Assembly (NCBI GenBank): GCA_963698135.1 | Contig: CAVOPP010000011.1 | Coordinates: 198,954-230,953, forward strand | From: an uncultured Methanobacteriaceae archaeon | GTDB taxonomy: Archaea; Methanobacteriota; Methanobacteria; Methanobacteriales; Methanobacteriaceae | Direction: 5' to 3' | DNA: 32,000 bases | Shown here: positions 2,920-23,151 of the stretch, piece by piece | Position numbering within the stretch: position 1 is the stretch's first letter | How the letters are laid out: the number at the start of each line of letters is the position of its first letter | Position numbers and translations under genes: made by a program | Notes under the pieces: model-generated | Seen by the model: the letters and a program-made list of their open reading frames with translations, nothing else | Told to the model about the DNA's origin: nothing | The model's database searches: none

Positions 2920-3622
2920 ATGGCCAATACTAGGGATATTCCAGAGTATCAATTAGAAATAGGTGAGAAATCACTATTAATGGATAAAGAAAATTTCAGC
3001 TTCTAAAATATATAGATAGCCTGGGCTCCATTACCCGAGCCTCTAAAGAGTCAAAAATTCCCTACAGGACTGCCCTAAAATACATTGAAGTAATAGAAAA
3101 AATTGTAGGTCAAGCTGTTGTATTGACCCAGAGAGGCGGTAAAGGAGGTGGAGGCGGTAGCCAACTTACTGATACCGGTAAGACAATTATTAAGGAATAT
3201 ATCAAGCTTAATCAAATTATTAAAAAACATTCCAATTTAAATGAGATTGAATGGAACAGTTAGTTCACTGGAAATTGAACAATAGAGTTATGAATGTCAA
3301 AATAGGACAAAATGAGATTATTATTACCCCTCCACAAGGATTTGGAAAAGGTGACAAAGTTTTAATTTTGATTATCAACCCTGAAGATATATTTATTATG
3401 CTCCGTCCCCAGGAATCCAGTGTGAGAAACATTGTAGAGGGCGAAATTGTTGGTATGGAAATTCAAAATGAAATGGTAAAGCTGAAAGTAGCTCTGGATC
3501 CATTAACCAATATTCTGGTGGGATATAACCCGATATTCCTGGAGAAAAACTGGAATTAAGATCTGGAAAAAAAGGTTTTTGTTGGATTTAAAGCCACTTC
3601 CCTATCATTAATAAAGATGTAA
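2920..3622 (+). pseudogene. ModE-like molybdate-responsive regulator (HTH + two TOBE/Mop-like domains), decayed by multiple frameshifts
   Basis: Homologous pieces lie in all three forward frames. 2920-3006 gives MANTRDIPEYQLEIGEKSLLMDKENFSF*. 3003-3263 gives LKYIDSLGSITRASKESKIPYRTALKYIEVIEKIVGQAVVLTQRGGKGGGGGSQLTDTGK..., a ModE-type HTH with the GG..GGG..LT signature. 3253-3285 gives GTVSSLEIEQ*. 3281-3559 is TOBE-like (listed ORF 3251-3559). 3560-3622 gives DLEKKVFVGFKATSLSLIKM*. At least four frame changes are needed to rebuild one protein. Confidence 0.65.
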
Positions 3623-3628
3623 TAGATA

Positions 3629-3677
3629 TTATAACTTATCACTTATAAGTTAAAAGTTGTAACTTATAACTTATAAT
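3629..3677. repeat. heptad array A: seven phased 7-bp units TTATAAN
   Basis: Read directly: TTATAAC TTATCAC TTATAAG TTAAAAG TTGTAAC TTATAAC TTATAAT. It contains the palindrome ACTTATAAGT. It lies between the ModE-like pseudogene end (3622) and the SD/ATG of the ferredoxin gene (3697). Confidence 0.85.
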
Positions 3678-3696: not shown

Positions 3697-3897
3697 ATGC
3701 AAATATTAGTAGACAAAAAAAGATGTACCGGATGCGGAAAATGCGAGGAAGCGTGTCCAAAAGGAGGAGTAATTTGGTCTATAGACCGTAAAACAGAAAT
3801 AGATGAAGCTTCGAACCTGGAATATTGTCACCAATGCACGATTTGTGCTGGTAAATGCCCGGAAAAAGCAATTACAATTGTTAGAGATGATAACTAA
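3697..3897 (+). CDS. 2x[4Fe-4S] ferredoxin
   Basis: Two canonical motifs, [12 protein letters not shown] and [12 protein letters not shown], in 66 aa. GAGGTAA SD upstream. The stop TAA overlaps the hisB ATG (TAATG). Confidence 0.85.
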
Positions 3898-4475
3898 TGT
3901 CAAGGAAAAAAAATAAGACAAGAAAAACATCTGAAACAGAAATAGAAATTTCACTAAACCTGGATGGAACCGGACAATATAATGTTCAAACAGGTGTGGA
4001 ATTTTTCGACCACATGCTGGAATCATTTGCCCGGCATGGATTTTTCGATCTGGAAGTTAAGGCCCAGGGCGATGTGAGCGTAGATGACCATCACACTGTG
4101 GAAGACGTGGGAATACTATTGGGTGAAGTATTTAATGAGGCAGTAGGAGATAAAAAAGGAATAAATCGGATTTCTCATTCCCTGGTGCCCATGGACGAGG
4201 CTCTGGCCATGGTAGCAGTTGACATAAGCGGCCGAAGCTATTGCATAATAGACATGCACTTTACCCAGCAAAAAGTGGGGGAGTTATCCACCGAAAATGT
4301 GGAGCATTTCCTGGAATCATTTGCCAGCAGCGCCCGGATAAATATAAATGCCAAGGTAGAAGGAGAGAACGACCATCACCAGATCGAGGCACTATTTAAA
4401 GCGCTGGCCCGGGCTCTAAAAGATGCTGTAAAAGTTGAACACGACCAGATACCCAGTACCAAAGGCATTTTATAA
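3897..4475 (+). CDS. hisB: imidazoleglycerol-phosphate dehydratase
   Basis: Strong family signature: [45 protein letters not shown] and [16 protein letters not shown]. Confidence 0.93.
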
Positions 4476-4498
4476 TTTAATTTTAAAAGAGGGATAAA

Positions 4499-5134
4499 AT
4501 GGTTTCTGAGATACGAAAAAAATTTACCATGCCTACGGCCCGCCTGGAAACCCTGGCCGACGGTATATTCGCCATTGCCATGACTTTACTTGTTTTAAGT
4601 ATTGAAGCTCCCAGTCCCGGAACCATTACTTCTTCTTTAGATTTTCAAAATTATGTTAATGAATTAATTCCTCAAATGTCCGTATATGCACTCAGTTTCA
4701 TTTTACTAGGTTCTTTCTGGTTAAATCACCATATTTTCTTTTTAATTAAAAAAACAAATACCCGACTGGTGTGGGTAAATATCCTCTGGCTCATGATGGT
4801 GGTTCTGGTACCATTTAGCACGTCACTCATTGGTTCTTACAGTCAGTATCCGCTTTCTGAGATAATATTCGGGATTAATATGTTTTTAATTGGAGTTTTA
4901 TACCTTTTAAACCTCCTATATGCTTATTATGGAGATTTTATGGAAGAAAAGGTCAGGCCCTATGCCTGGCGCATAATCTTAGGCAGTATTTCTTTACCGA
5001 TTATAGCATTAGTTTCCATAGCAATTTCCTTTAATAGTCCCTTCTGGAGTCTGGCAGTTTATCCCATAATACCCATAATTATGAGCTCCTTTGCTGTTTT
5101 ATACAGGGCGAGAAAAAGTAAGTACGAAAATTAA
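4499..5134 (+). CDS. TMEM175 / DUF1211 family membrane protein (K+ channel-like)
   Basis: The N-terminal signature RLETLADGIFAIAMTLLVL (RxxxFSDGxxAIxxTLLVL type) is followed by about 6 hydrophobic helices. Confidence 0.75.
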   Translation: MVSEIRKKFTMPTARLETLADGIFAIAMTLLVLSIEAPSPGTITSSLDFQNYVNELIPQMSVYALSFILLGSFWLNHHIFFLIKKTNTRLVWVNILWLMMVVLVPFSTSLIGSYSQYPLSEIIFGINMFLIGVLYLLNLLYAYYGDFMEEKVRPYAWRIILGSISLPIIALVSIAISFNSPFWSLAVYPIIPIIMSSFAVLYRARKSKYEN

Positions 5135-5189
5135 TAAGCAGATGTAGATGTTGTGGCATATAATGATGTAGGAATAAAAATAAAAATAA

Positions 5190-5486
5190 TTAAATTAAAA
5201 CGGAATATTCTTTTCGCAAGGAAATAAGCTCTTTAGACATTCCATTTAATTCATAGGATTCAATTTCAAAGTCTAACTCATTATAATTATCCAGAACGTG
5301 ATCTATTTTATCCATTACCAGATCAATCTTATTTATTTGGAATGCAATAAATTCCTTATAATTTTTATTTTCTTCGCTTGGTTCATTAAGATCCTTGGTT
5401 CTGATTTGTGGCAGTTTAGATGTCGAAGAAATCTTTATTTCATTATATTCGTCGAATATTTGATCTAATTCTGATTTTGAAAACAT
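5190..5486 (-). CDS. hypothetical small acidic protein
   Basis: 98-aa ORF 29 bp downstream of the HD-domain gene on the same strand. No family recognised. Charged, helical-looking composition. Confidence 0.4.
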   Translation of the reverse strand: MFSKSELDQIFDEYNEIKISSTSKLPQIRTKDLNEPSEENKNYKEFIAFQINKIDLVMDKIDHVLDNYNELDFEIESYELNGMSKELISLRKEYSVLI

Positions 5487-5515
5487 TATTAAATCCCCTA
5501 ATTTGTTATTTATGA

Positions 5516-6727
5516 TTATTCTTCAATCAATTTCTCCAGACTGCGGAAAATTTGGCCGAAATCATTTCCAGAAACCTTTTGAGATTTCCAATATTCCATC
5601 ATACCTTTTTGGGCTTCTTCCAGATCTTTAGAAGTGACACCATGTCGAATAGAAATCTTGGCCTCAGCAAAAGCCGCTAACTGATCACATGCCTTTACCA
5701 GTTCCCCATCTAAAGGAGAAAATTCATTTTTATTATATTTTTTATTTAAATCATTAAATGTTATGAATTTAACCGAAGTCTCATCTTTAATTTTGTTTTT
5801 AAATTCATCCCCAGTAAAATAAAGCATTTCATCGCGCCAGGTCTTGGGAAGAAGAGGCAAAAGCTCCTCTTTCATTTGATAGTCCTCATATTCTTTAATT
5901 ATATCTTCCAGCCCTCTAACTGATCGTTTTACAGGAGATATAATATCCTTGGTCATTACTTCTGGCAGGTCATGAAATAAACCAGCGAAAAAATTGTTAT
6001 AAATCCGCTTATCGCATGCTTTAACACCCATTTCCATGGTACATAAATAAGCAGTGGAGGCCACGATTAACATATGGCCCAGGACTGAGGTTTCAGGAAT
6101 TCGAGGAGAGTGAGCCCATCTTTTCTGAAATCGAAGTTGACCACATAGATCCACAAAGCCAAAGGACTTTTTTTCCAGCATTATCTTTTGAACACCAATT
6201 AAATCATAATGGTCTTCAATCTGGTTTTCGATTTTTTCCCGGGTATTTTCAATTCCATAAATGAAGGGGGCTGTATTGTAAATAATCTTAAATTCCCAGT
6301 TGGTGGCCAGGTAGTGGGCCGCCCGTAAAATTCGTTTTTCCAGCGTGCTTTGCCGACTGAAAAGGTAATTCTTAAATTTTTCCTCAAAAGAATTGTCTTT
6401 TAAGCCTTGAAAATCAGTTTTCAATTCATTTATGACGTGTTTATTTAATTCTTCCCTCTTTTCATCCATCATTCTATGAAACACTGACGGTTTAATATCT
6501 GTTAAAACAAGTCGATGGAAGAAATCAAATAAAAACCCTTCAATTAAGTTAATCCAGTTAATAGAATCTTTTCCCCTGCTATCTTCTTCTATTTTAGCCA
6601 GTACATATGCTATAATCATTTTATGAGCTTGTTTATCCAGTTCTGTCAATTGAACTGGCCTTATATGATCGTTCCATCGTTCCATGGTGGCCGCCTTGAA
6701 GAAGCGTTCTATTAAGTTTTCTATCAT
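5516..6727 (-). CDS. HD-domain metal-dependent phosphohydrolase (YfbR-like core with a degenerate N-terminal duplicate)
   Basis: RWAHSPRIPETSVLGHMLIVASTAYL ... FFAGLFHDLPE gives the H...HD metal-binding pattern of HD hydrolases. An N-terminal ERWNDHIRP...AHKMIIAYVLA segment looks like a degenerate copy of the same module. Confidence 0.7.
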   Translation of the reverse strand: MIENLIERFFKAATMERWNDHIRPVQLTELDKQAHKMIIAYVLAKIEEDSRGKDSINWINLIEGFLFDFFHRLVLTDIKPSVFHRMMDEKREELNKHVINELKTDFQGLKDNSFEEKFKNYLFSRQSTLEKRILRAAHYLATNWEFKIIYNTAPFIYGIENTREKIENQIEDHYDLIGVQKIMLEKKSFGFVDLCGQLRFQKRWAHSPRIPETSVLGHMLIVASTAYLCTMEMGVKACDKRIYNNFFAGLFHDLPEVMTKDIISPVKRSVRGLEDIIKEYEDYQMKEELLPLLPKTWRDEMLYFTGDEFKNKIKDETSVKFITFNDLNKKYNKNEFSPLDGELVKACDQLAAFAEAKISIRHGVTSKDLEEAQKGMMEYWKSQKVSGNDFGQIFRSLEKLIEE

Positions 6728-9468: not shown

Positions 9469-12400
9469 TTATTTTCCTGTTTTGAATCTAAATGAACAGC
9501 TATTGGCCAGATTATTTCCCGCATAGTCTTTTACAGCACCAGAAGGAATATAAACTGAGTACCAAGTATAACTACTTCTTTTCAAGGCAGTGTTAATTTT
9601 AAGAACGTTTCCAGAAATGGATACGCTAATTTTTACTAACTTACCTGTTTTAAGGTTTTTAATATAAACCTTGGACCAGTTAACACTACTTTTAAGGTTT
9701 TCAGATAATTTCACGTAGATTGTGGAAGTTCTGGAAACATTAACAGCCTTGTGCTTAGGATAAGTTAAAACTACCTTAGGGGCCACTTTATCTATATTAT
9801 AAGTTGCAGGATACACTTGTGAGGGATTACCTGAATCATCAACAGCTAAAAACTTCAAAATGGTTGATGAGCTAATAGTTATGGGTCCCGTGTATTTTGT
9901 GCTGTTAGTAGTGGGCGTGGAACCATTTAAAGTGTAGTATATACTACCTGCTTCGCTCATGGTTAGAGAAATTACCTTATTGGTGTTATAAAGTCCGCTT
10001 TTCAGATTGGCCCAGGCCTGAGGCATGTTTTTGTCTATGCTATAATTTTCTTCATAGATTGTAGAAGGATTTCCAGATTCATCTATAGCTAAAAACTTCA
10101 AAACAGTGCTAGAATTAATACTAATAGGACCAAAATACTTAATACTAAGATTACTCGGCGTAGAACCATCCAAAGTATAATAAATAACCCCTGGCTCACT
10201 CATATTCAAACTAACCAGTTGATTGGTATTATACGATCCACTCTTAATATCCGCAATTGCTGTAGGTAAAACCTTGTCAATATCATATGCTTCAACAGCC
10301 ACTTCTGAAGGATTTCCAGCCAAATCAACAGCTAAAAACTTCAAAATAGACGTATTGTTTATAGATATTGGGCCAGAATACTTAATACTGGAATTACTCG
10401 GAGTAGAATTATCCAAAGTATAATAAATACTACCAGACTCACTCATAACCAAACTAACCAACTGATCAACATTAAACAATCCACCCAAAACATCAGCCCA
10501 AACAGTAGGAACAACCTTATCAACTACATAAGATTCAGAACCAACTAAAGAAGGATTTCCAGCCAAATCTACAGCTAAAAACTTCAAAATAGACGTATTG
10601 TTTATAGATATTGGGCCAGAATACTTAGTACTGGAATTACTCGGAGTAGAATTATCCAAAGTATAATAAATACTACCAGACTCACTCATAGCCAAACTAA
10701 CCAACTGATCAACATTAAACAATCCACCCAAAACATCAGCCCAAACTGTAGGAACAACCTTATCAACAGTGAAACTAGAATCAAATCCATTTGACAAATT
10801 ATTACCTACTAAGTCCATCACCGCGTTCGCCGGTATGTTCAAATTATAACCCCCATCCACATAATCGGCTGTTGGAGTTAAAAACAAAACATTCCCTACG
10901 ATGGTTTTATTCATATGGACAATACCAGAAGGTCCGGTTACACTAATACTACCAAAATAACTGCCTTCTTGAATAAATTCGCTGAAAGTAATAGTGATTA
11001 ACTTATTTCCAATGTTTATAAAAGCATTATTAATTGGATCAGTAATGTTTACAATTGGAGGAGTTGTATCCGGTGTCCAGATTAAGTTGTCTACCCAACC
11101 ACAATTAGAACCCACAGAATTGTTGTCACTACCGTCTTTAGTGTAACTCCACTTTAGAGTGTGTATCCCCGGGCCTAAAATGAAATTTTTATTTTGCCAA
11201 TCCTGTTCCCCACTTATACTAAATTGTTCTAAACCATCAATAAAGAATCTTAAAAAGTCATGTCCTGATTCGGATGATACTTTCCAATCAAAGTTCAGAT
11301 ATCCTAAACCTTCCACCAGGGTACTCATCCAGGTGGTCTCATTATTCCAGATAAACCCGCTTTGAGCAGAATTTGTATCGTTTTGACCTATATTTTGGGT
11401 CCCAAACCAGGTAACATTTCCGGTTCCATTAGTAGTCCAGTTAAGAAGTTCATTTTCTAAAGCTATTCCAATAGGCAACAATCCCTTCCATCCAAATGCT
11501 GCAGATGTCTGATTTTTGGGGCTGGCCAGATTGTAAACATATATTCCGGAGGATCCGGAATACCAATTACTATTGGGAGTTGTGGACGGGCCAAAGTATT
11601 TAGAAGGTCTATAAACATCTCCAGCATCAGCATCGTGAGACCCGTTTTGTATATCAAACAATCCATCGGCTTGTACTAAATCAACTAGATTATGAACCGT
11701 GTTGGAATTATCATAGAAAAATCTTCCATTGGCATCTAAGGTAGCATCAATATGCCAGATATACAGACCATCAGCCGGTACTCCTCCAGCCCATTTACCC
11801 GTGGACGGGTAATAAAAGTATTTATCATTTCCAGTTTTTTTCCGGTATTCCACCATATAAAACTCTTTATTTTCAGGACCCAAAAACTGGCCAGGGTAAA
11901 TTAATACACTGCTATGAGTTCCATTTAATTCTGCGGGGTTGAGAATTAGCTGCTGATCAAGGGCACTAACATCCGTTACATAATACGGGTTTATCCATCC
12001 CAATAACATTTTAAAGAAACAATTAAAGTCAGAAGACCCTCCATCCATCATATCCAGGCCACCGACACCATATCCCGGACCATTTATGTTAGTGTAAGGA
12101 GCAGTTCCAGTATCGTAATCATAAAGATCAGGTAACCCTAATAAATGTCCAGTTTCGTGTATATCAGTTTTAGGATTGGCTCCATACTCTGCCCACATAT
12201 ATTTATTCATTTTCACGCCATCTACAGTGAAATTATTACTACTTGGCAAAGTAATTACATATGACCACCAGGTACTTCCCCATCCAGTATCAGGACCGGC
12301 CCATTTTAAGGCCATGCCTTCCATATACCCGTCGCCATTGTTATCATATTGGGAGAAGTCCGTGGTGTTATCATAATAATTCATGACTTCCATCATCAAT

Positions 12401-12981
12401 TCCATTCTATTGGTATAATAACTACGGTTATGCTGTGCAGTATACCATCCTAAAACATCTCCCGTGATATTTAGTAATCCATAGGATGATCGCTGGTACC
12501 AGTTATGCAAACTCTCATAAGGATAATAATTTATAGAAGTATTGTAAGCTCCACTACCATTCCCAAAATAAATGGACTGTATTTCACCCACACTTTGAGT
12601 GGATTCATGTGGATAATCCGGGAAGTCCACCAGCATTATCAACATTTTAACAGTTCCCGTTGAGGGCAATGTGGTTGAAGTAGGTCGGGTCGACGAGGGT
12701 TCAACACTTATATTATTTTTAGACGGATTAGAACCTAAATTTAACCTCTGGTTTAAATTATTAATTAATTTAGGATCCGTATTTTGATTTCCAATGGCAG
12801 TTACATTGGTAATTCTTTCATCAAGTGTACCATCCGCCTTGTATTGTGCAATTTGTTCTTCAGTAGGTTTTTCGGTTGCACAGGCATTACCCATGGCGAA
12901 AATTATCCCTACGAAAAATATCAGTGCAAAAAGCATAGTTTTATTTTTATTTATAATGACACCTCCAAATTTTTCACTCAT
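9469..12981 (-). CDS. secreted M6-family (immune inhibitor A-like) zinc metalloprotease with Ig-like domains and four tandem 81-aa repeats
   Basis: HExxH zinc motif in M6-like context: HETGHLLGLPDLYDYD. Signal peptide NKNKTMLFALIFFVGIIFAMGNACA. Four repeats of type SGSIYYTLDGSTPS..S.KY.GPI.I..S..LKF.A.D..GNPS (chitobiase/Fn3-associated-like). Terminal Ig-like domain ending FKTGK. Start set at ATG 12981 (MSEKFGG...) rather than 13026. ATT/ATA 12957/12954 and ATG 12936 are alternatives. Confidence 0.8.
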   Translation of the reverse strand: MSEKFGGVIINKNKTMLFALIFFVGIIFAMGNACATEKPTEEQIAQYKADGTLDERITNVTAIGNQNTDPKLINNLNQRLNLGSNPSKNNISVEPSSTRPTSTTLPSTGTVKMLIMLVDFPDYPHESTQSVGEIQSIYFGNGSGAYNTSINYYPYESLHNWYQRSSYGLLNITGDVLGWYTAQHNRSYYTNRMELMMEVMNYYDNTTDFSQYDNNGDGYMEGMALKWAGPDTGWGSTWWSYVITLPSSNNFTVDGVKMNKYMWAEYGANPKTDIHETGHLLGLPDLYDYDTGTAPYTNINGPGYGVGGLDMMDGGSSDFNCFFKMLLGWINPYYVTDVSALDQQLILNPAELNGTHSSVLIYPGQFLGPENKEFYMVEYRKKTGNDKYFYYPSTGKWAGGVPADGLYIWHIDATLDANGRFFYDNSNTVHNLVDLVQADGLFDIQNGSHDADAGDVYRPSKYFGPSTTPNSNWYSGSSGIYVYNLASPKNQTSAAFGWKGLLPIGIALENELLNWTTNGTGNVTWFGTQNIGQNDTNSAQSGFIWNNETTWMSTLVEGLGYLNFDWKVSSESGHDFLRFFIDGLEQFSISGEQDWQNKNFILGPGIHTLKWSYTKDGSDNNSVGSNCGWVDNLIWTPDTTPPIVNITDPINNAFINIGNKLITITFSEFIQEGSYFGSISVTGPSGIVHMNKTIVGNVLFLTPTADYVDGGYNLNIPANAVMDLVGNNLSNGFDSSFTVDKVVPTVWADVLGGLFNVDQLVSLAMSESGSIYYTLDNSTPSNSSTKYSGPISINNTSILKFLAVDLAGNPSLVGSESYVVDKVVPTVWADVLGGLFNVDQLVSLVMSESGSIYYTLDNSTPSNSSIKYSGPISINNTSILKFLAVDLAGNPSEVAVEAYDIDKVLPTAIADIKSGSYNTNQLVSLNMSEPGVIYYTLDGSTPSNLSIKYFGPISINSSTVLKFLAIDESGNPSTIYEENYSIDKNMPQAWANLKSGLYNTNKVISLTMSEAGSIYYTLNGSTPTTNSTKYTGPITISSSTILKFLAVDDSGNPSQVYPATYNIDKVAPKVVLTYPKHKAVNVSRTSTIYVKLSENLKSSVNWSKVYIKNLKTGKLVKISVSISGNVLKINTALKRSSYTWYSVYIPSGAVKDYAGNNLANSCSFRFKTGK
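9793..10764 (-). repeat. four tandem 243-bp (81-aa) coding repeats inside the M6 protease gene; copies 1 and 2 nearly identical
   Basis: Repeat boundaries were derived by counting codons from the stop: 10522-10764, 10279-10521, 10036-10278, 9793-10035, each starting DK(V/N)xP. Copies 1 and 2 differ by only a handful of bases over about 210 bp. Confidence 0.9.
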
Positions 12982-13344
12982 TTTAGGGGATGATGCAATA
13001 ATTGGAATTAATAATATATGATTCATTTAGTTTATTTTTGTAATAAATCGTATTAGAACATTAAGTTCTCTGAAAGTTTTTAACAATTTATAATTCATTA
13101 AAAAAACAGTTAAAAGTACTAAATCACCATTATTATTGATAATATCTGCGTATTAGTAGCAAATTTAAAAAAAAATTAAAGATAACTTTTCTTCCCCCCA
13201 AAGTCATAAAATTAATTGATAAAATGAGTATATAAATTTTTCTAAAATGCTTAAGTCAAAAATAAACTACAAAATAGAATGATTATAAAATATACTTTTA
13301 AAAATTATGAAACGAATCTATAATTCTAATTAATTTAAATAAAT

Positions 13345-16076: not shown

Positions 16077-16179
16077 GAATTTTCTCCATCAAGTACTTTC
16101 TTTATCCATTCAATCAGTTATATCCTTAAACCAGGTAGGATTATTTAATTTTCTTTATTCATTTTATCAGTTATAATCC

Positions 16180-19099: not shown

Positions 19100-19627
19100 T
19101 TATGATTTTGCTAAGTATTTAGCCTTCGTTACATGAGATTTACCATGAACTAGACAATAATCAGCGTCACAAGCACTGCAAACCCACATTCCTTCCGGAC
19201 ATGAGCTTCCACGTTCGTATTTTACCTTCCCTAACTTTTTACAGTAGGGACAGTAATTTTTGAATTTTGATGTGTGTTCCTTGTAATCCTGGTGTAAACT
19301 GCAAGAACATCGGCCAGTTGATTCCACGTATTCTGAAGTTGCATAAACTTTGGAAGCCCCTACCTTAGCTAAATAGGATTTAGTGGATTTTCTGGTTTTT
19401 TTCTTGTATTTATGGTACTTTCTGTATTTCTTATACTTATTGTACTTCTTGTACTTCTTGTATTTTTTATATTTCTTGTATTTTTTATATTTCTTATATG
19501 CATCCACAGCAGGTGCTTTAGTTACCTGTGCAGTTACTTTTGTAGTATCTACATTTTTGGATACATTAATTTCTCCAAAAATCGGCACAATGGACACCAC
19601 CATACAAGTTGCTAGTGCCAGGGCCAT
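19100..19627 (-). CDS. secreted Lys/Tyr-repeat protein with C-terminal 8-Cys zinc-ribbon-like domain
   Basis: A hydrophobic N-terminus (ALALATCMVVSIVPIFG) is followed by 11 consecutive Y-x-K triplets. The C-terminal part reads CSCSLH...CPYC...C...CSAC...C..H. A probable in-frame extension to ATA 19648 / ATT 19645 sits behind a GGAGG. Confidence 0.6.
   Translation of the reverse strand: MALALATCMVVSIVPIFGEINVSKNVDTTKVTAQVTKAPAVDAYKKYKKYKKYKKYKKYKKYNKYKKYRKYHKYKKKTRKSTKSYLAKVGASKVYATSEYVESTGRCSCSLHQDYKEHTSKFKNYCPYCKKLGKVKYERGSSCPEGMWVCSACDADYCLVHGKSHVTKAKYLAKS
19400..19498 (-). repeat. in-frame 9-bp/18-bp tandem repeat encoding (Tyr-x-Lys)11
   Basis: YKK x6, YNK, YKK, YRK, YHK, YKK. The plus strand shows cttgtactt cttgtactt and tatttcttgtatttttta x2. 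Confidence 0.9.
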
Positions 19628-21611: not shown

Positions 21612-21660
21612 TTATAAGTTATAACTTATAAGTTATGTGTTATAATTTATAACTTATAAT
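21612..21660. repeat. heptad array B: seven phased 7-bp units TTATAAN in the convergent gap downstream of the ParA partner gene
   Basis: Read directly: TTATAAG TTATAAC TTATAAG TTATGTG TTATAAT TTATAAC TTATAAT. It contains the perfect 20-bp palindrome TTATAAGTTATAACTTATAA (21612-21631) and the 16-bp palindrome ATAACTTATAAGTTAT (21621-21636). Confidence 0.9.
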
Positions 21661-21703: not shown

Positions 21704-22270
21704 CTATAATTCGTCAAATAGATCCCATATCTCAGGATATTTCTCTTTTACGGCATCTTCAATTAATTTAGAAGCTTCTTTACTGATACTAAATTCTGGC
21801 TGAGTTTTTTTAAGATACCTTAAAACTGCCGCCGAACGAGAAGACCAGAGAGTTATCCGAGGATTTTTTCTAACATCACTTGTTACCATGTTTATTCTTT
21901 CAGCATCAGCAGAAATTGGTTTTTTATTACCCGATTCTTTACTCTCAGAATATTTTTCAGTTGATAAAACCTCTGCTGATTCATTGGTTTTTTTATTAGA
22001 ACTAGATGAAGATGATTTGGTGGATTTTGTAGAATTAGATTTTTTTCTTTTACTTGACTTTTTAACAGATTCGATTTTAGAATTATATGTATCTGAATCT
22101 TTAATGCTATCTGATTTTTTCTTTAAAATATCTTTTTCGTCTTTATCAGACTCAAAGCTCCCTGATTCCTCTTGAGGCTCTTCTCTAGTTTTGGATTTAA
22201 TAAGAGCGTCCAAACCCATTCCTAATCCCGAACTTTTTGAAGGAGATTTACGTCGGGCCATTTTAACCAT
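21704..22270 (-). CDS. ParA partner protein: Spo0J-like N-terminal peptide + Ser/Lys-rich disordered linker + C-terminal RHH-like domain (SegB/omega-like centromere-binding candidate)
   Basis: Its start overlaps the parA stop (ATGGTTAAAATG; alternative ATG at 22261). The N-terminus RRKSPSKSSGLGMGLDALIKSK resembles the ParB/Spo0J GLGRGLDALL ParA-activating peptide. Residues about 25-130 are S/K/E/D low complexity. The C-terminal RITLWSSRSAAVLRYLKK..SISKEASKLIEDAVKEKY fits a strand-helix-helix pattern. No ParB/Srx or HTH domain was recognised. Confidence 0.6.
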   Translation of the reverse strand: MVKMARRKSPSKSSGLGMGLDALIKSKTREEPQEESGSFESDKDEKDILKKKSDSIKDSDTYNSKIESVKKSSKRKKSNSTKSTKSSSSSSNKKTNESAEVLSTEKYSESKESGNKKPISADAERINMVTSDVRKNPRITLWSSRSAAVLRYLKKTQPEFSISKEASKLIEDAVKEKYPEIWDLFDEL

Positions 22271-23033
22271 CCCGTTTGAGAAGTTCCTGGGCCAGTTTCA
22301 AATAGGCAGTAGTTCCAGCACTTTCTTGATCATAAAGAATACATGGTTTTCCATAACTGGGGGCCTCTGCCAACCTCACATTACGAGGTATGGTGGTTTT
22401 AAATATGTATTCCTTCTCACCAAAGTATTTTTTTACTTCTTGATGGACATCCCTAGCCAGACGTGTTCTAGAATCATACAAAGTTATTAAAATTCCCTTA
22501 ACCGGGGATGAACTCTGTAAACGTTCTTCTACAAGATTTATAGTTTTCAGTAAATCTGCCATTCCTTCCAAAGCATAGTATTCTGCTTGTATAGGTATTA
22601 TAACGCTATCTGATGCAACCAATGCATTTAAAGTGAGTATTCCCAGGGAAGGGGGAACATCAATCAATATATAATCAAACATTCCTTTAACAACTTTTAA
22701 TGAATCCTGTAAAATGGAATGGTAACCGATTTCTCTACTAAGTTCAACTTCTGCCCCACTAAGTGAAATATTACTTGGAACAAGGTATAAATCGTCCAGA
22801 ACAGTGGGAATCATGGCTTCTTCCATATTATTCTGCCGGGTCAACACAGAGTATATGGTATTTTCCAATTCTCCTTTTTGAACACCAAATCCCGTTGTAG
22901 CATTTCCCTGGGGATCCAGGTCAATAACCAGGACCTTCTTATCCATTAGAGCCAGTGCAGTCGACAAATTCACAGCTGTGGTTGTTTTTCCACACCCGCC
23001 TTTTTGATTAATAATTGAAATTACTTCACCCAT
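22263..23033 (-). CDS. parA: ParA/Soj family partition ATPase
   Basis: Deviant Walker A NQKGGCGKTTTAVNLSTALA, DLDPQGNAT, and end-to-end resemblance to chromosomal Soj. Start placed at ATG 23033 (GAGGT SD 6 nt upstream) rather than the listed TTG at 23048. Confidence 0.9.
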   Translation of the reverse strand: MGEVISIINQKGGCGKTTTAVNLSTALALMDKKVLVIDLDPQGNATTGFGVQKGELENTIYSVLTRQNNMEEAMIPTVLDDLYLVPSNISLSGAEVELSREIGYHSILQDSLKVVKGMFDYILIDVPPSLGILTLNALVASDSVIIPIQAEYYALEGMADLLKTINLVEERLQSSSPVKGILITLYDSRTRLARDVHQEVKKYFGEKEYIFKTTIPRNVRLAEAPSYGKPCILYDQESAGTTAYLKLAQELLKRDG

Positions 23034-23082
23034 GAAAAAACCTCGCAAGACTAGTTAAATTAAGATTTATGAGAATCATTTT

Positions 23083-23121: not shown

Positions 23122-23151
23122 TTATAATAATTATAAGTTATAAGTTATAAT
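23122..23151. repeat. heptad array C: TTATAAT-aa-TTATAAG TTATAAG TTATAAT upstream of parA
   Basis: Read directly: four perfect TTATAAN units with one 2-bp phase break. Degenerate units flank it (TTCTTAA 23115-23121, TATTTTG 23152-23158). It lies about 90-120 bp upstream of the parA start. Confidence 0.8.

Follow-up and report, generated by a model that had tools for sequence, protein, structure and literature searches.

A chromosomal segAB-type cassette in Methanobacteriaceae, with a ParB-like peptide on SegB and heptad arrays as candidate SegB sites

The SegAB pair was first described in 2012 in Sulfolobus as a 'hybrid' machine, in which the ParA-like ATPase SegA works with the archaea-specific protein SegB, and SegB orthologues, always encoded downstream of segA, are already listed in Euryarchaeota, both for Methanothermobacter and Methanosphaera and for the Methanobacteriales as a whole (PMC5120986; PMC12139799; PMC12284271). 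SegB has a ribbon-helix-helix (RHH) fold (PMC8682754), and a horizontal transfer from Sulfolobaceae has been proposed (PMC12139799). Here we analysed a stretch of 32,000 nucleotides (hereafter the window) from an uncultured Methanobacteriaceae archaeon (assembly GCA_963698135.1, contig CAVOPP010000011.1, positions 198,954 to 230,953), in which a gene for a Soj-like ParA ATPase overlaps a gene for a 188-aa partner protein. We read this locus as a segAB partition cassette on a Methanobacteriaceae chromosome, working by the mechanism proposed below, and we place the probability of this reading at about 0.8. Because SegAB of the Methanobacteriales is already listed in the literature, the statement in an earlier note on this DNA that such a pair was not described does not hold.

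In the Sulfolobales (Saccharolobus solfataricus and Sulfolobus acidocaldarius; structures 7DUV, 7DV2 and 7DUT), as in the window, the ParA-type gene overlaps a downstream gene for an RHH protein, and in SegB an N-terminal tail without fixed structure and a middle part that varies precede a conserved C-terminal region of ~60 residues (KNP[KR]I.[VL]WS). The Sulfolobales protein is dimeric, its tail contacts the ATPase and stimulates it, and its sites are 13-bp palindromes of 6-S-6 architecture beside the operon. There are also clear differences. The ATPase of the window is nearer to bacterial Soj (8ray_B, E=2.5e-76; Helicobacter pylori and Thermus thermophilus Soj, ~1e-60) than to Sulfolobus SegA (7dut_A, E=1.1e-19 only), so that by sequence it is far closer to bacterial chromosomal ParA/Soj. 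The N-terminus of its partner carries a full ParB motif, (S)GLG[RKM]GLDALI, whereas that of the Sulfolobales reads MSELDFLLKKK, and the putative DNA unit, repeated in long arrays of heptads, is TTATAA-S-TTATAA rather than TCTAGA-S-TCTAGA. The hosts here are rod-shaped methanogens, and no segC-like gene was seen.

With bacterial ParABS (Soj-Spo0J/ParB) the locus shares the ParA subtype, with its Walker A motif, its Arg for DNA binding and the Tyr and Glu of its pocket, as well as a partner with an N-terminal ParA-binding motif. Unlike ParB, however, this partner has no ParB/Srx CTPase domain, no helix-turn-helix (HTH) and no clamp, and is predicted to bind DNA through its RHH fold; lacking the CTPase domain and clamp, it is not expected to undergo CTP-gated sliding. 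The type Ib plasmid systems delta/omega (pSM19035) and ParF/ParG (TP228) also pair a small ParA with an RHH centromere-binder that has a flexible, activating N-terminal tail. Omega of pSM19035 binds contiguous arrays of 7-bp heptads in direct and inverted orientation, which resemble the TTATAAS arrays described here. Searches of PDB sequences, at E up to 1-10, showed no similarity to omega or ParG, and neither protein stood among the Foldseek matches. In contrast to the plasmid systems, the locus is chromosomal and vertically inherited, and it encodes a peptide of the chromosomal ParB type that is absent from those plasmid proteins (10.1101/2025.03.14.642875). The AspA-ParB-ParA system of the Sulfolobus plasmid pNOB8 is likewise an archaeal system that mixes bacterial-type and archaeal parts, but it has three components, including a true ParB N-terminal domain and, as a separate site-specific binder, the winged-helix protein AspA, neither of which is present here (PMC8682754).

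SegB homology, gene coupling and synteny

In phmmer searches of the PDB, the 188-aa protein matched Sulfolobus solfataricus SegB over residues 104-186 (7duv_A, E=8.3e-9; 7dv2_A, E=9.6e-7), and a profile built from 20 family members lifted the SegB match among PDB sequences to E=2.2e-12. Homologues of the protein number 1428. An AlphaFold2 (AF2) model of the C-terminal domain (residues 116-188, 30-sequence alignment), with a predicted local distance difference test score (pLDDT) of 86, shows a helix at 123-135, an extended segment at 136-143 (NPRITLWS) and helices at 144-156, 162-177 and 179-186. This monomer model has the order of elements expected of an RHH SegB (alpha1-beta1-alpha2-alpha3-alpha4), and its sole credible structural match in the PDB is the SegB-DNA complex 7dv2_A (probability 1.00; template modelling score 0.74/0.71; root-mean-square deviation 2.1 A over 66 columns). 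The SegB C-terminal signature has been given as (K/R)(D/N)P(K/R)I(G/T)(V/L)WS(Y/P)(P/E) (PMC12139799); KNPRITLWS at residues 135-143 fits its first 9 positions, and S-R follows where the signature has Y/P-P/E. Mutation of K52 in Sulfolobus SegB abolishes DNA binding, and this position is Arg in euryarchaea (PMC8682754; PMC12139799); R138 of the window protein aligns with this DNA-contacting residue.

By its sequence, then, the 188-aa protein is a SegB homologue, and as the model of its C-terminal domain also superposes on 7DV2, the locus is a segAB cassette. The earlier note had cited SegB merely as a comparator and took the protein for an undescribed hybrid adaptor. This claim of novelty was wrong, but the anatomy that it gave was correct: a C-terminus of strand-helix-helix pattern, to which the model adds one helix before and one after; an RHH-like domain, for which structure prediction indeed returns an RHH fold; and a low-complexity linker rich in Ser, Lys, Glu and Asp, which we find to span ~90 residues and to be predicted disordered. 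The full-length AF2 model has a pLDDT of 62.6, with residues ~30-118 disordered and free of secondary structure (pLDDT ~46-53). It gave no meaningful Foldseek match, SegB being recovered only with the isolated C-terminal domain. Among homologues of 105-330 aa the linker is conserved neither in length nor in sequence.

Scans of the 188-aa protein against Pfam and NCBIfam found neither ParB/Srx nor HTH at E up to 1, in agreement with the earlier note, and when 30 C-terminal domains were scanned along with it no family was returned, only sub-threshold noise (DUF5800, Rap1a). Both domains are further ruled out because homologues as short as 105 aa are too small to hold them.

Two observations concern other members of the family. 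Homologues P0010-P0012, P0026, P0052 and P0119, of 140-180 aa, are named 'AAA family ATPase' in NCBI/UniRef; as these proteins have no ATPase domain, the label looks misplaced and appears to have been carried over from the neighbouring ParA. A SegB-like subfamily of ~160-215 aa (P0193, P0197, P0204, P0207, P0208, P0211, P0213, P0216 and others) apparently has two tandem SegB-type domains and is without the N-terminal ParB-like peptide.

The ParA open reading frame (ORF) begins at TTG, 23048, in the program-made ORF list, but its start is likely the ATG at 23033 (MGEVISIINQKGGCGKT...; MGEVISI...), which follows GAGGT at 23040-23044 and gives a protein of 256 aa. With the ParA stop codon (TAA) at 22263-22265 and the segB ATG at 22270, the two minus-strand genes overlap by 8 nt (ATGGTTAA), bearing out the translational coupling that the earlier note had proposed. 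A second in-frame segB ATG is found at 22261, 1 nt past the ParA stop, and SegB homologues use either start position; whichever of the two serves, segA and segB are tightly coupled.

The survey of related genomes that the earlier note proposed covered 80 genome loci, all from Methanobacteriales-type records. SegB homologues adjoin parA, the ParA gene ending at the SegB start, in 77 of the 80, and the remaining three are contigs without upstream DNA. Gene order is widely conserved as thrS-segA-segB with a convergent radical S-adenosylmethionine (SAM)/helix-hairpin-helix gene behind, and thrS-segA-segB-radical-SAM is common to Methanobacterium, Methanothermobacter, Methanosphaera and Methanobrevibacter. 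The cassette is therefore chromosomal and vertically inherited at one site across the order. The closest related loci are in metagenome-assembled genomes of Methanobacteriaceae. In two distant euryarchaeal loci, L081 (2048-3007) and L083 (4425-5261), a DUF8128 gene adjoins the ParA-SegB-like pair, on opposite strands, and its product may be a conserved third partner.

The N-terminal peptide and the ATPase pocket

The N-terminus is the second conserved block of the SegB family, with the consensus (S/G/A)LG(R/K/M/L)GLD(A/S)LI beginning 4-12 residues from the protein start. A profile of 19 family N-termini, run against all PDB sequences, produced one match, to residues 1-18 of T. thermophilus Spo0J (MSRKPSGLGRGLEALLPK; E=2.5e-4). 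Since this Spo0J N-terminus was the only match, the resemblance to the ParB/Spo0J peptide, already noticed in the earlier note, is statistically supported. When 1.84 billion representatives were searched exhaustively with a profile, 281 members of the family scored an E of 1e-3 or better. The motif stands near the N-terminus in 81 of the 150 top representatives (with Lys at its centre in 36, Arg in 35, Met in 4 and Leu in 2), and many of those without it are obvious fragments or have mis-called starts. More distant SegB relatives, encoded downstream of a ParA gene, have N-termini of the RLGRGLDALIP- or KLGKGLDAII-type, and one distant motif-bearing cluster includes a sequence from Archaeoglobales. 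In Sulfolobales SegB, where the N-terminus reads MSELD(F/L)(L/I)(L/I)(K/N)(K/R)KK, the likeness is limited to the second half of the motif (LDxLL plus basic residues).

In most family members the centre of the motif is occupied by Arg or Lys. In the clade of the window this residue is Met (GLGMGL; SegB residue 20, 22210-22212), and in some relatives it is Leu; such Met or Leu centres were seen in loci L001-L005, L008, L011 and L012, and always continue with ALIK.K. We found no report of this Met in the searchable literature.

The N-terminal peptide of bacterial ParB alone suffices to stimulate the ParA ATPase (10.1101/2025.03.14.642875), and the unstructured N-terminus of Sulfolobus SegB stimulates SegA (PMC8682754). 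The tail of the window SegB is predicted to be disordered and carries the ParA-binding motif, which points to a putative role in modulating the ATPase. The N-termini of euryarchaeal SegB have been described as poorly conserved or without assigned function (PMC12139799). We found no mention of a ParB-like motif on SegB in the searchable literature, although the 2012 SegAB paper lies outside that search and could mention it. The presence of the canonical ParA-binding motif of bacterial ParB at the N-terminus of SegB in these lineages therefore appears to be unreported, and is possibly new.

Pfam and NCBIfam scans class the window ParA as an ATPase of the ParA/Soj type (AAA_31, 1.4e-65), and it has the Walker A sequence KGGCGKT. 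Its PDB match 8ray_B is here regarded as Myxococcus xanthus ParA, since the published residue numbers map exactly onto this chain. The residues reported beside the central Arg of the ParB motif in M. xanthus ParA are Y81, E82, D110 and E117 (10.1101/2025.03.14.642875), and by alignment their equivalents in the window ParA are Y61, S62, S90 and E97; R220 aligns with R238, which binds DNA non-specifically. All 74 of the Methanobacteriales ParAs examined have Y61 and E97 without exception, and their equivalents are also kept in the ParAs of distant contigs that bear SegB. A Methanobacteriaceae chromosome (L085, 866900-877229) has, besides the canonical cassette, a second, divergent parA-segB-like pair (4237-5330 of the locus), in which the 109-aa SegB-like paralogue P0214 carries a degenerate peptide, GGLGNDMGKLL, and the ParA has lost the equivalents of both Y61 and E97. 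This joint loss, a single case, is consistent with a peptide that acts on a bacterial-type pocket.

Heptad arrays beside segAB

The in vivo motif of Sulfolobus SegB derived from chromatin immunoprecipitation is TCTAGA-S-TCTAGA, with the core AGA-S-TCT (PMC12284271). The unit found here, TTATAA-S-TTATAA, has a palindromic core, TAA-S-TTA, and the same 6-S-6 architecture, and it is repeated in heptad arrays around the cassette (Table 1). The Sulfolobus motif itself (TCTAGASTCTAGA) is not enriched in the window, where it has 1 match with 2 mismatches vs 0.44 expected. By contrast, the 13-mer TTATAASTTATAA, allowing at most 1 mismatch, occurs 12 times in the 32-kb window vs 0.25 expected; a Markov model of intergenic DNA of 23.5% GC gives an expectation of 0.24 and a maximum of 3 in 500 simulations. 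All of its matches are confined to 4 of the 22 intergenic segments of the window, and an isolated match to the heptad motif, TTATCAGTTATAA, is found at 16164-16176.

The upstream array has a candidate role as a centromere-like element, as an operator, or as both. The downstream array occupies the gap in which segB and the radical-SAM gene converge. The third lies 21 nt upstream of a 66-aa ORF for a 4Fe-4S ferredoxin-like protein (3697-3897), which is followed by hisB (3897-4475).

The arrays are conserved beyond the window. They stand beside segAB, the upstream ones in the same position, in relatives where the rest of the intergenic DNA cannot be aligned, and the downstream arrays are conserved in loci of the Methanobacterium type. 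In 61 of 74 loci a match to the heptad motif lies within -300/+250 bp of the cassette, and arrays of 3 or more contiguous heptads are found within -700/+300 bp in 69 of 74; across these 74 loci the density of arrays in the latter interval is 2.17 per kb, vs 0.046 per kb elsewhere. Some genomes carry far more elaborate versions: locus L009 has a super-array of 5 units of 22 bp, with two heptads each, beside segAB (4474-4637), and in L050 the cassette has on either side many units of 54-58 bp that hold three heptads apiece (~880-1070, 2985-3139 and 4669-5500). Among distant family members, CTTATAA and GTTATAA lie 22 bp apart near the pair in L083 and AAA(G/C)TT heptads near that in L081, while TTAA(G/C)TTA octads (period 8) lie downstream of the L085 paralogue (5436-5688).

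Given the analogy with the Sulfolobus sites, we infer that the heptads are probably SegB sites, with one RHH dimer per unit. Such an arrangement would recall omega of pSM19035. It would also recall the SegB-DNA superhelix that has been seen in crystals (PMC8682754). That conserved heptad arrays, likely the sites of SegB, flank segAB appears to be unreported in the literature searched.

Table 1. Coordinates of the segAB genes, the regions of SegB and the heptad arrays in the window.
Feature	Position	Strand	Remarks
segA/parA	22263..23033	-	256-aa Soj-like deviant Walker-A ATPase
segB	21704..22270	-	188-aa centromere-binding-type protein; homology to Sulfolobus SegB
SegB residues 5-27 (RRKSPSKSSGLGMGLDALIKSKT)	22190..22258	-	ParB-type ParA-binding peptide; Met replaces central Arg/Lys
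SegB residues 28-118	21917..22189	-	Ser/Lys/Glu/Asp-rich linker, predicted disordered (pLDDT ~46-53); variable length
SegB residues 119-188	21707..21916	-	RHH DNA-binding domain (alpha1, strand NPRITLWS, alpha2-alpha4), predicted (AF2 and Foldseek)
Upstream array, TTATAAG TTATAAG TTATAAT	23131..23151	.	98-118 nt upstream of segA ATG; candidate SegB site
Downstream array, 7 x TTATAAS	21612..21660	.	Tandem Repeats Finder (TRF) period 7, 6.9 copies; candidate SegB site
Third array, 7 x TTATAAS-like	3629..3677	.	TRF period 7, 6.9 copies; possible SegB site, ~18 kb off

The remainder of the window contains the housekeeping genes thrS, mtd, hisB, ilvD and one for a cobyrinate-type amidase, and an Rfam scan of the window matched no RNA family. 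A 175-aa ORF at 19100-19627 (minus strand), without a match in Pfam, has a long basic (KYKKY)n repeat (TRF period 9, 19400-19499) and a Cys-rich C-terminus. A gene for a surface protein of 1185 aa (9469-13026; domains CHB_HEX_C_1, Fn3_assoc and Big_5) contains a 243-bp tandem repeat (2.9 copies, 84% matches) at 10063-10767, which probably encodes repeated domains of an adhesin-like protein.

Proposed mechanism and alternatives

We infer a DNA specificity for SegB, a function for its peptide and a role for the pair in segregation as follows. Dimers of SegB would coat the TTATAAS arrays on both sides of the operon through their RHH domains and so form a partition complex, and SegB would probably also sit at a few other sites, such as 3629-3677. 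From each dimer the long disordered linker would display two N-terminal peptides of the ParB type. Much as bacterial ParB binds ParA, these would fit into the conserved pocket where the two subunits of a nucleoid-bound ATP-SegA dimer meet, and their modulation of the SegA ATPase would move the SegB-DNA complex or position it on the nucleoid. Occupancy of the upstream array would probably also autoregulate segAB transcription.

Several points weigh against this picture. The segregation function is extrapolated from the Sulfolobales, the structure models cover monomers only, and the link between heptads and SegB is one of association and analogy. Because the array at 3629-3677 precedes an unrelated operon, the motif could belong to a transcription factor, or serve one as well. 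The M. xanthus ParB variant R13A keeps ParA binding but loses ATPase stimulation (10.1101/2025.03.14.642875), and as the central Met of GLGMGL sits at this very position, the peptide may bind without stimulating, or may rely on neighbouring Lys or Arg residues. On the ATPase side, the positions that match M. xanthus E82 and D110 are Ser, and among the 74 ParAs there is no clean covariation between positions 62 and 90 and the central residue of the peptide: the clades with Met or Leu have no acidic residue at either position, but neither do many of those with Arg or Lys, and the pattern is confounded by phylogeny.

The pair might instead be mainly a transcriptional module, in which an RHH repressor acts on TTATAAS operators at segAB, at ferredoxin/hisB and elsewhere, with ParA as an accessory or co-repressor and without a dedicated role in segregation. 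The RHH fold is that of classic repressors; the segA promoter region has an array immediately before it, and the unrelated ORF at 3697 has one 21 nt upstream. In the delta/omega system of pSM19035, a parallel case, omega is also a global regulator. A 2016 review notes that the Sulfolobus sites might be regulatory too (PMC5120986). Yet the array called the largest of the window lies between convergent genes, where a promoter would not be expected, and the tens of heptads in iteron-like arrays of some genomes look more like a centromere than an operator. A ParA-activating peptide on a long linker would have no obvious use in a pure repressor, and segAB mutants of Sulfolobus show segregation defects (PMC12284271; PMC12139799). 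We therefore consider a purely regulatory role unlikely, at about the level of an outside chance.

Two other explanations we rejected as very improbable. The ParA with a small RHH partner is a type Ib arrangement typical of plasmids, and the L085 chromosome has a second, divergent pair, as would suit a cassette that was the partition module of an integrated plasmid or provirus; against this stand the thrS-segA-segB-radical-SAM order, conserved over four genera, the housekeeping neighbours, and the lack of integrase or other mobile-element genes nearby. Slighter still is the chance that the partner is a degenerate full-length ParB whose Srx and HTH domains have decayed past recognition, the N-terminal motif being their sole remnant. 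The match of the peptide to Spo0J and the bacterial, Soj-type character of the ATPase would suit such an origin, but the domain scans that found neither ParB/Srx nor HTH, a middle region that is disordered, of low complexity, variable in length and nearly gone in homologues of 105 aa, and a C-terminus that is a conserved RHH domain homologous to SegB all speak for a SegB protein. With them the concern raised in the earlier note, that a full-length ParB had gone unrecognised, falls away.

Returning to the segAB cassette, a wider proposal can be made, which we offer tentatively and hold, for its three parts jointly, at slightly less than even odds. Most euryarchaeal SegBs would share the motif LG[RK]GLDAL[IL] with bacterial ParB, as a ParA-activating peptide that crosses domains and acts on the same Soj-type pocket, and SegB would combine a ParB peptide with an RHH domain, as a chimera from a domain swap or through descent from a common ancestral adaptor. 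The Sulfolobales sequence MSELDFLLKKK would have arisen from this motif by truncation instead of being its ancestor; if true, a derived Sulfolobales form would reverse the published proposal of a transfer from Sulfolobaceae to methanogens. The arrays of TAA-S-TTA heptads would be the long-sought chromosomal centromeres of the Methanobacteriales.

In summary, the SegAB pair is already known in these methanogens, and the remaining interest of the locus lies in the cross-domain motif, in the candidate centromere and in the motif variants with Met or Leu. Database names can be corrected as well, several SegB homologues being labelled as ATPases. SegAB has been studied experimentally in the Sulfolobales only, and chromosome segregation in methanogens is experimentally untouched. 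If our inferences hold, the contact between peptide and pocket ties archaeal SegAB to the activation mechanism of bacterial ParB-ParA, the heptad arrays provide a concrete candidate centromere sequence for the Methanobacteriales, and the natural Met and Leu variants could reveal the role of the key basic position of the motif.

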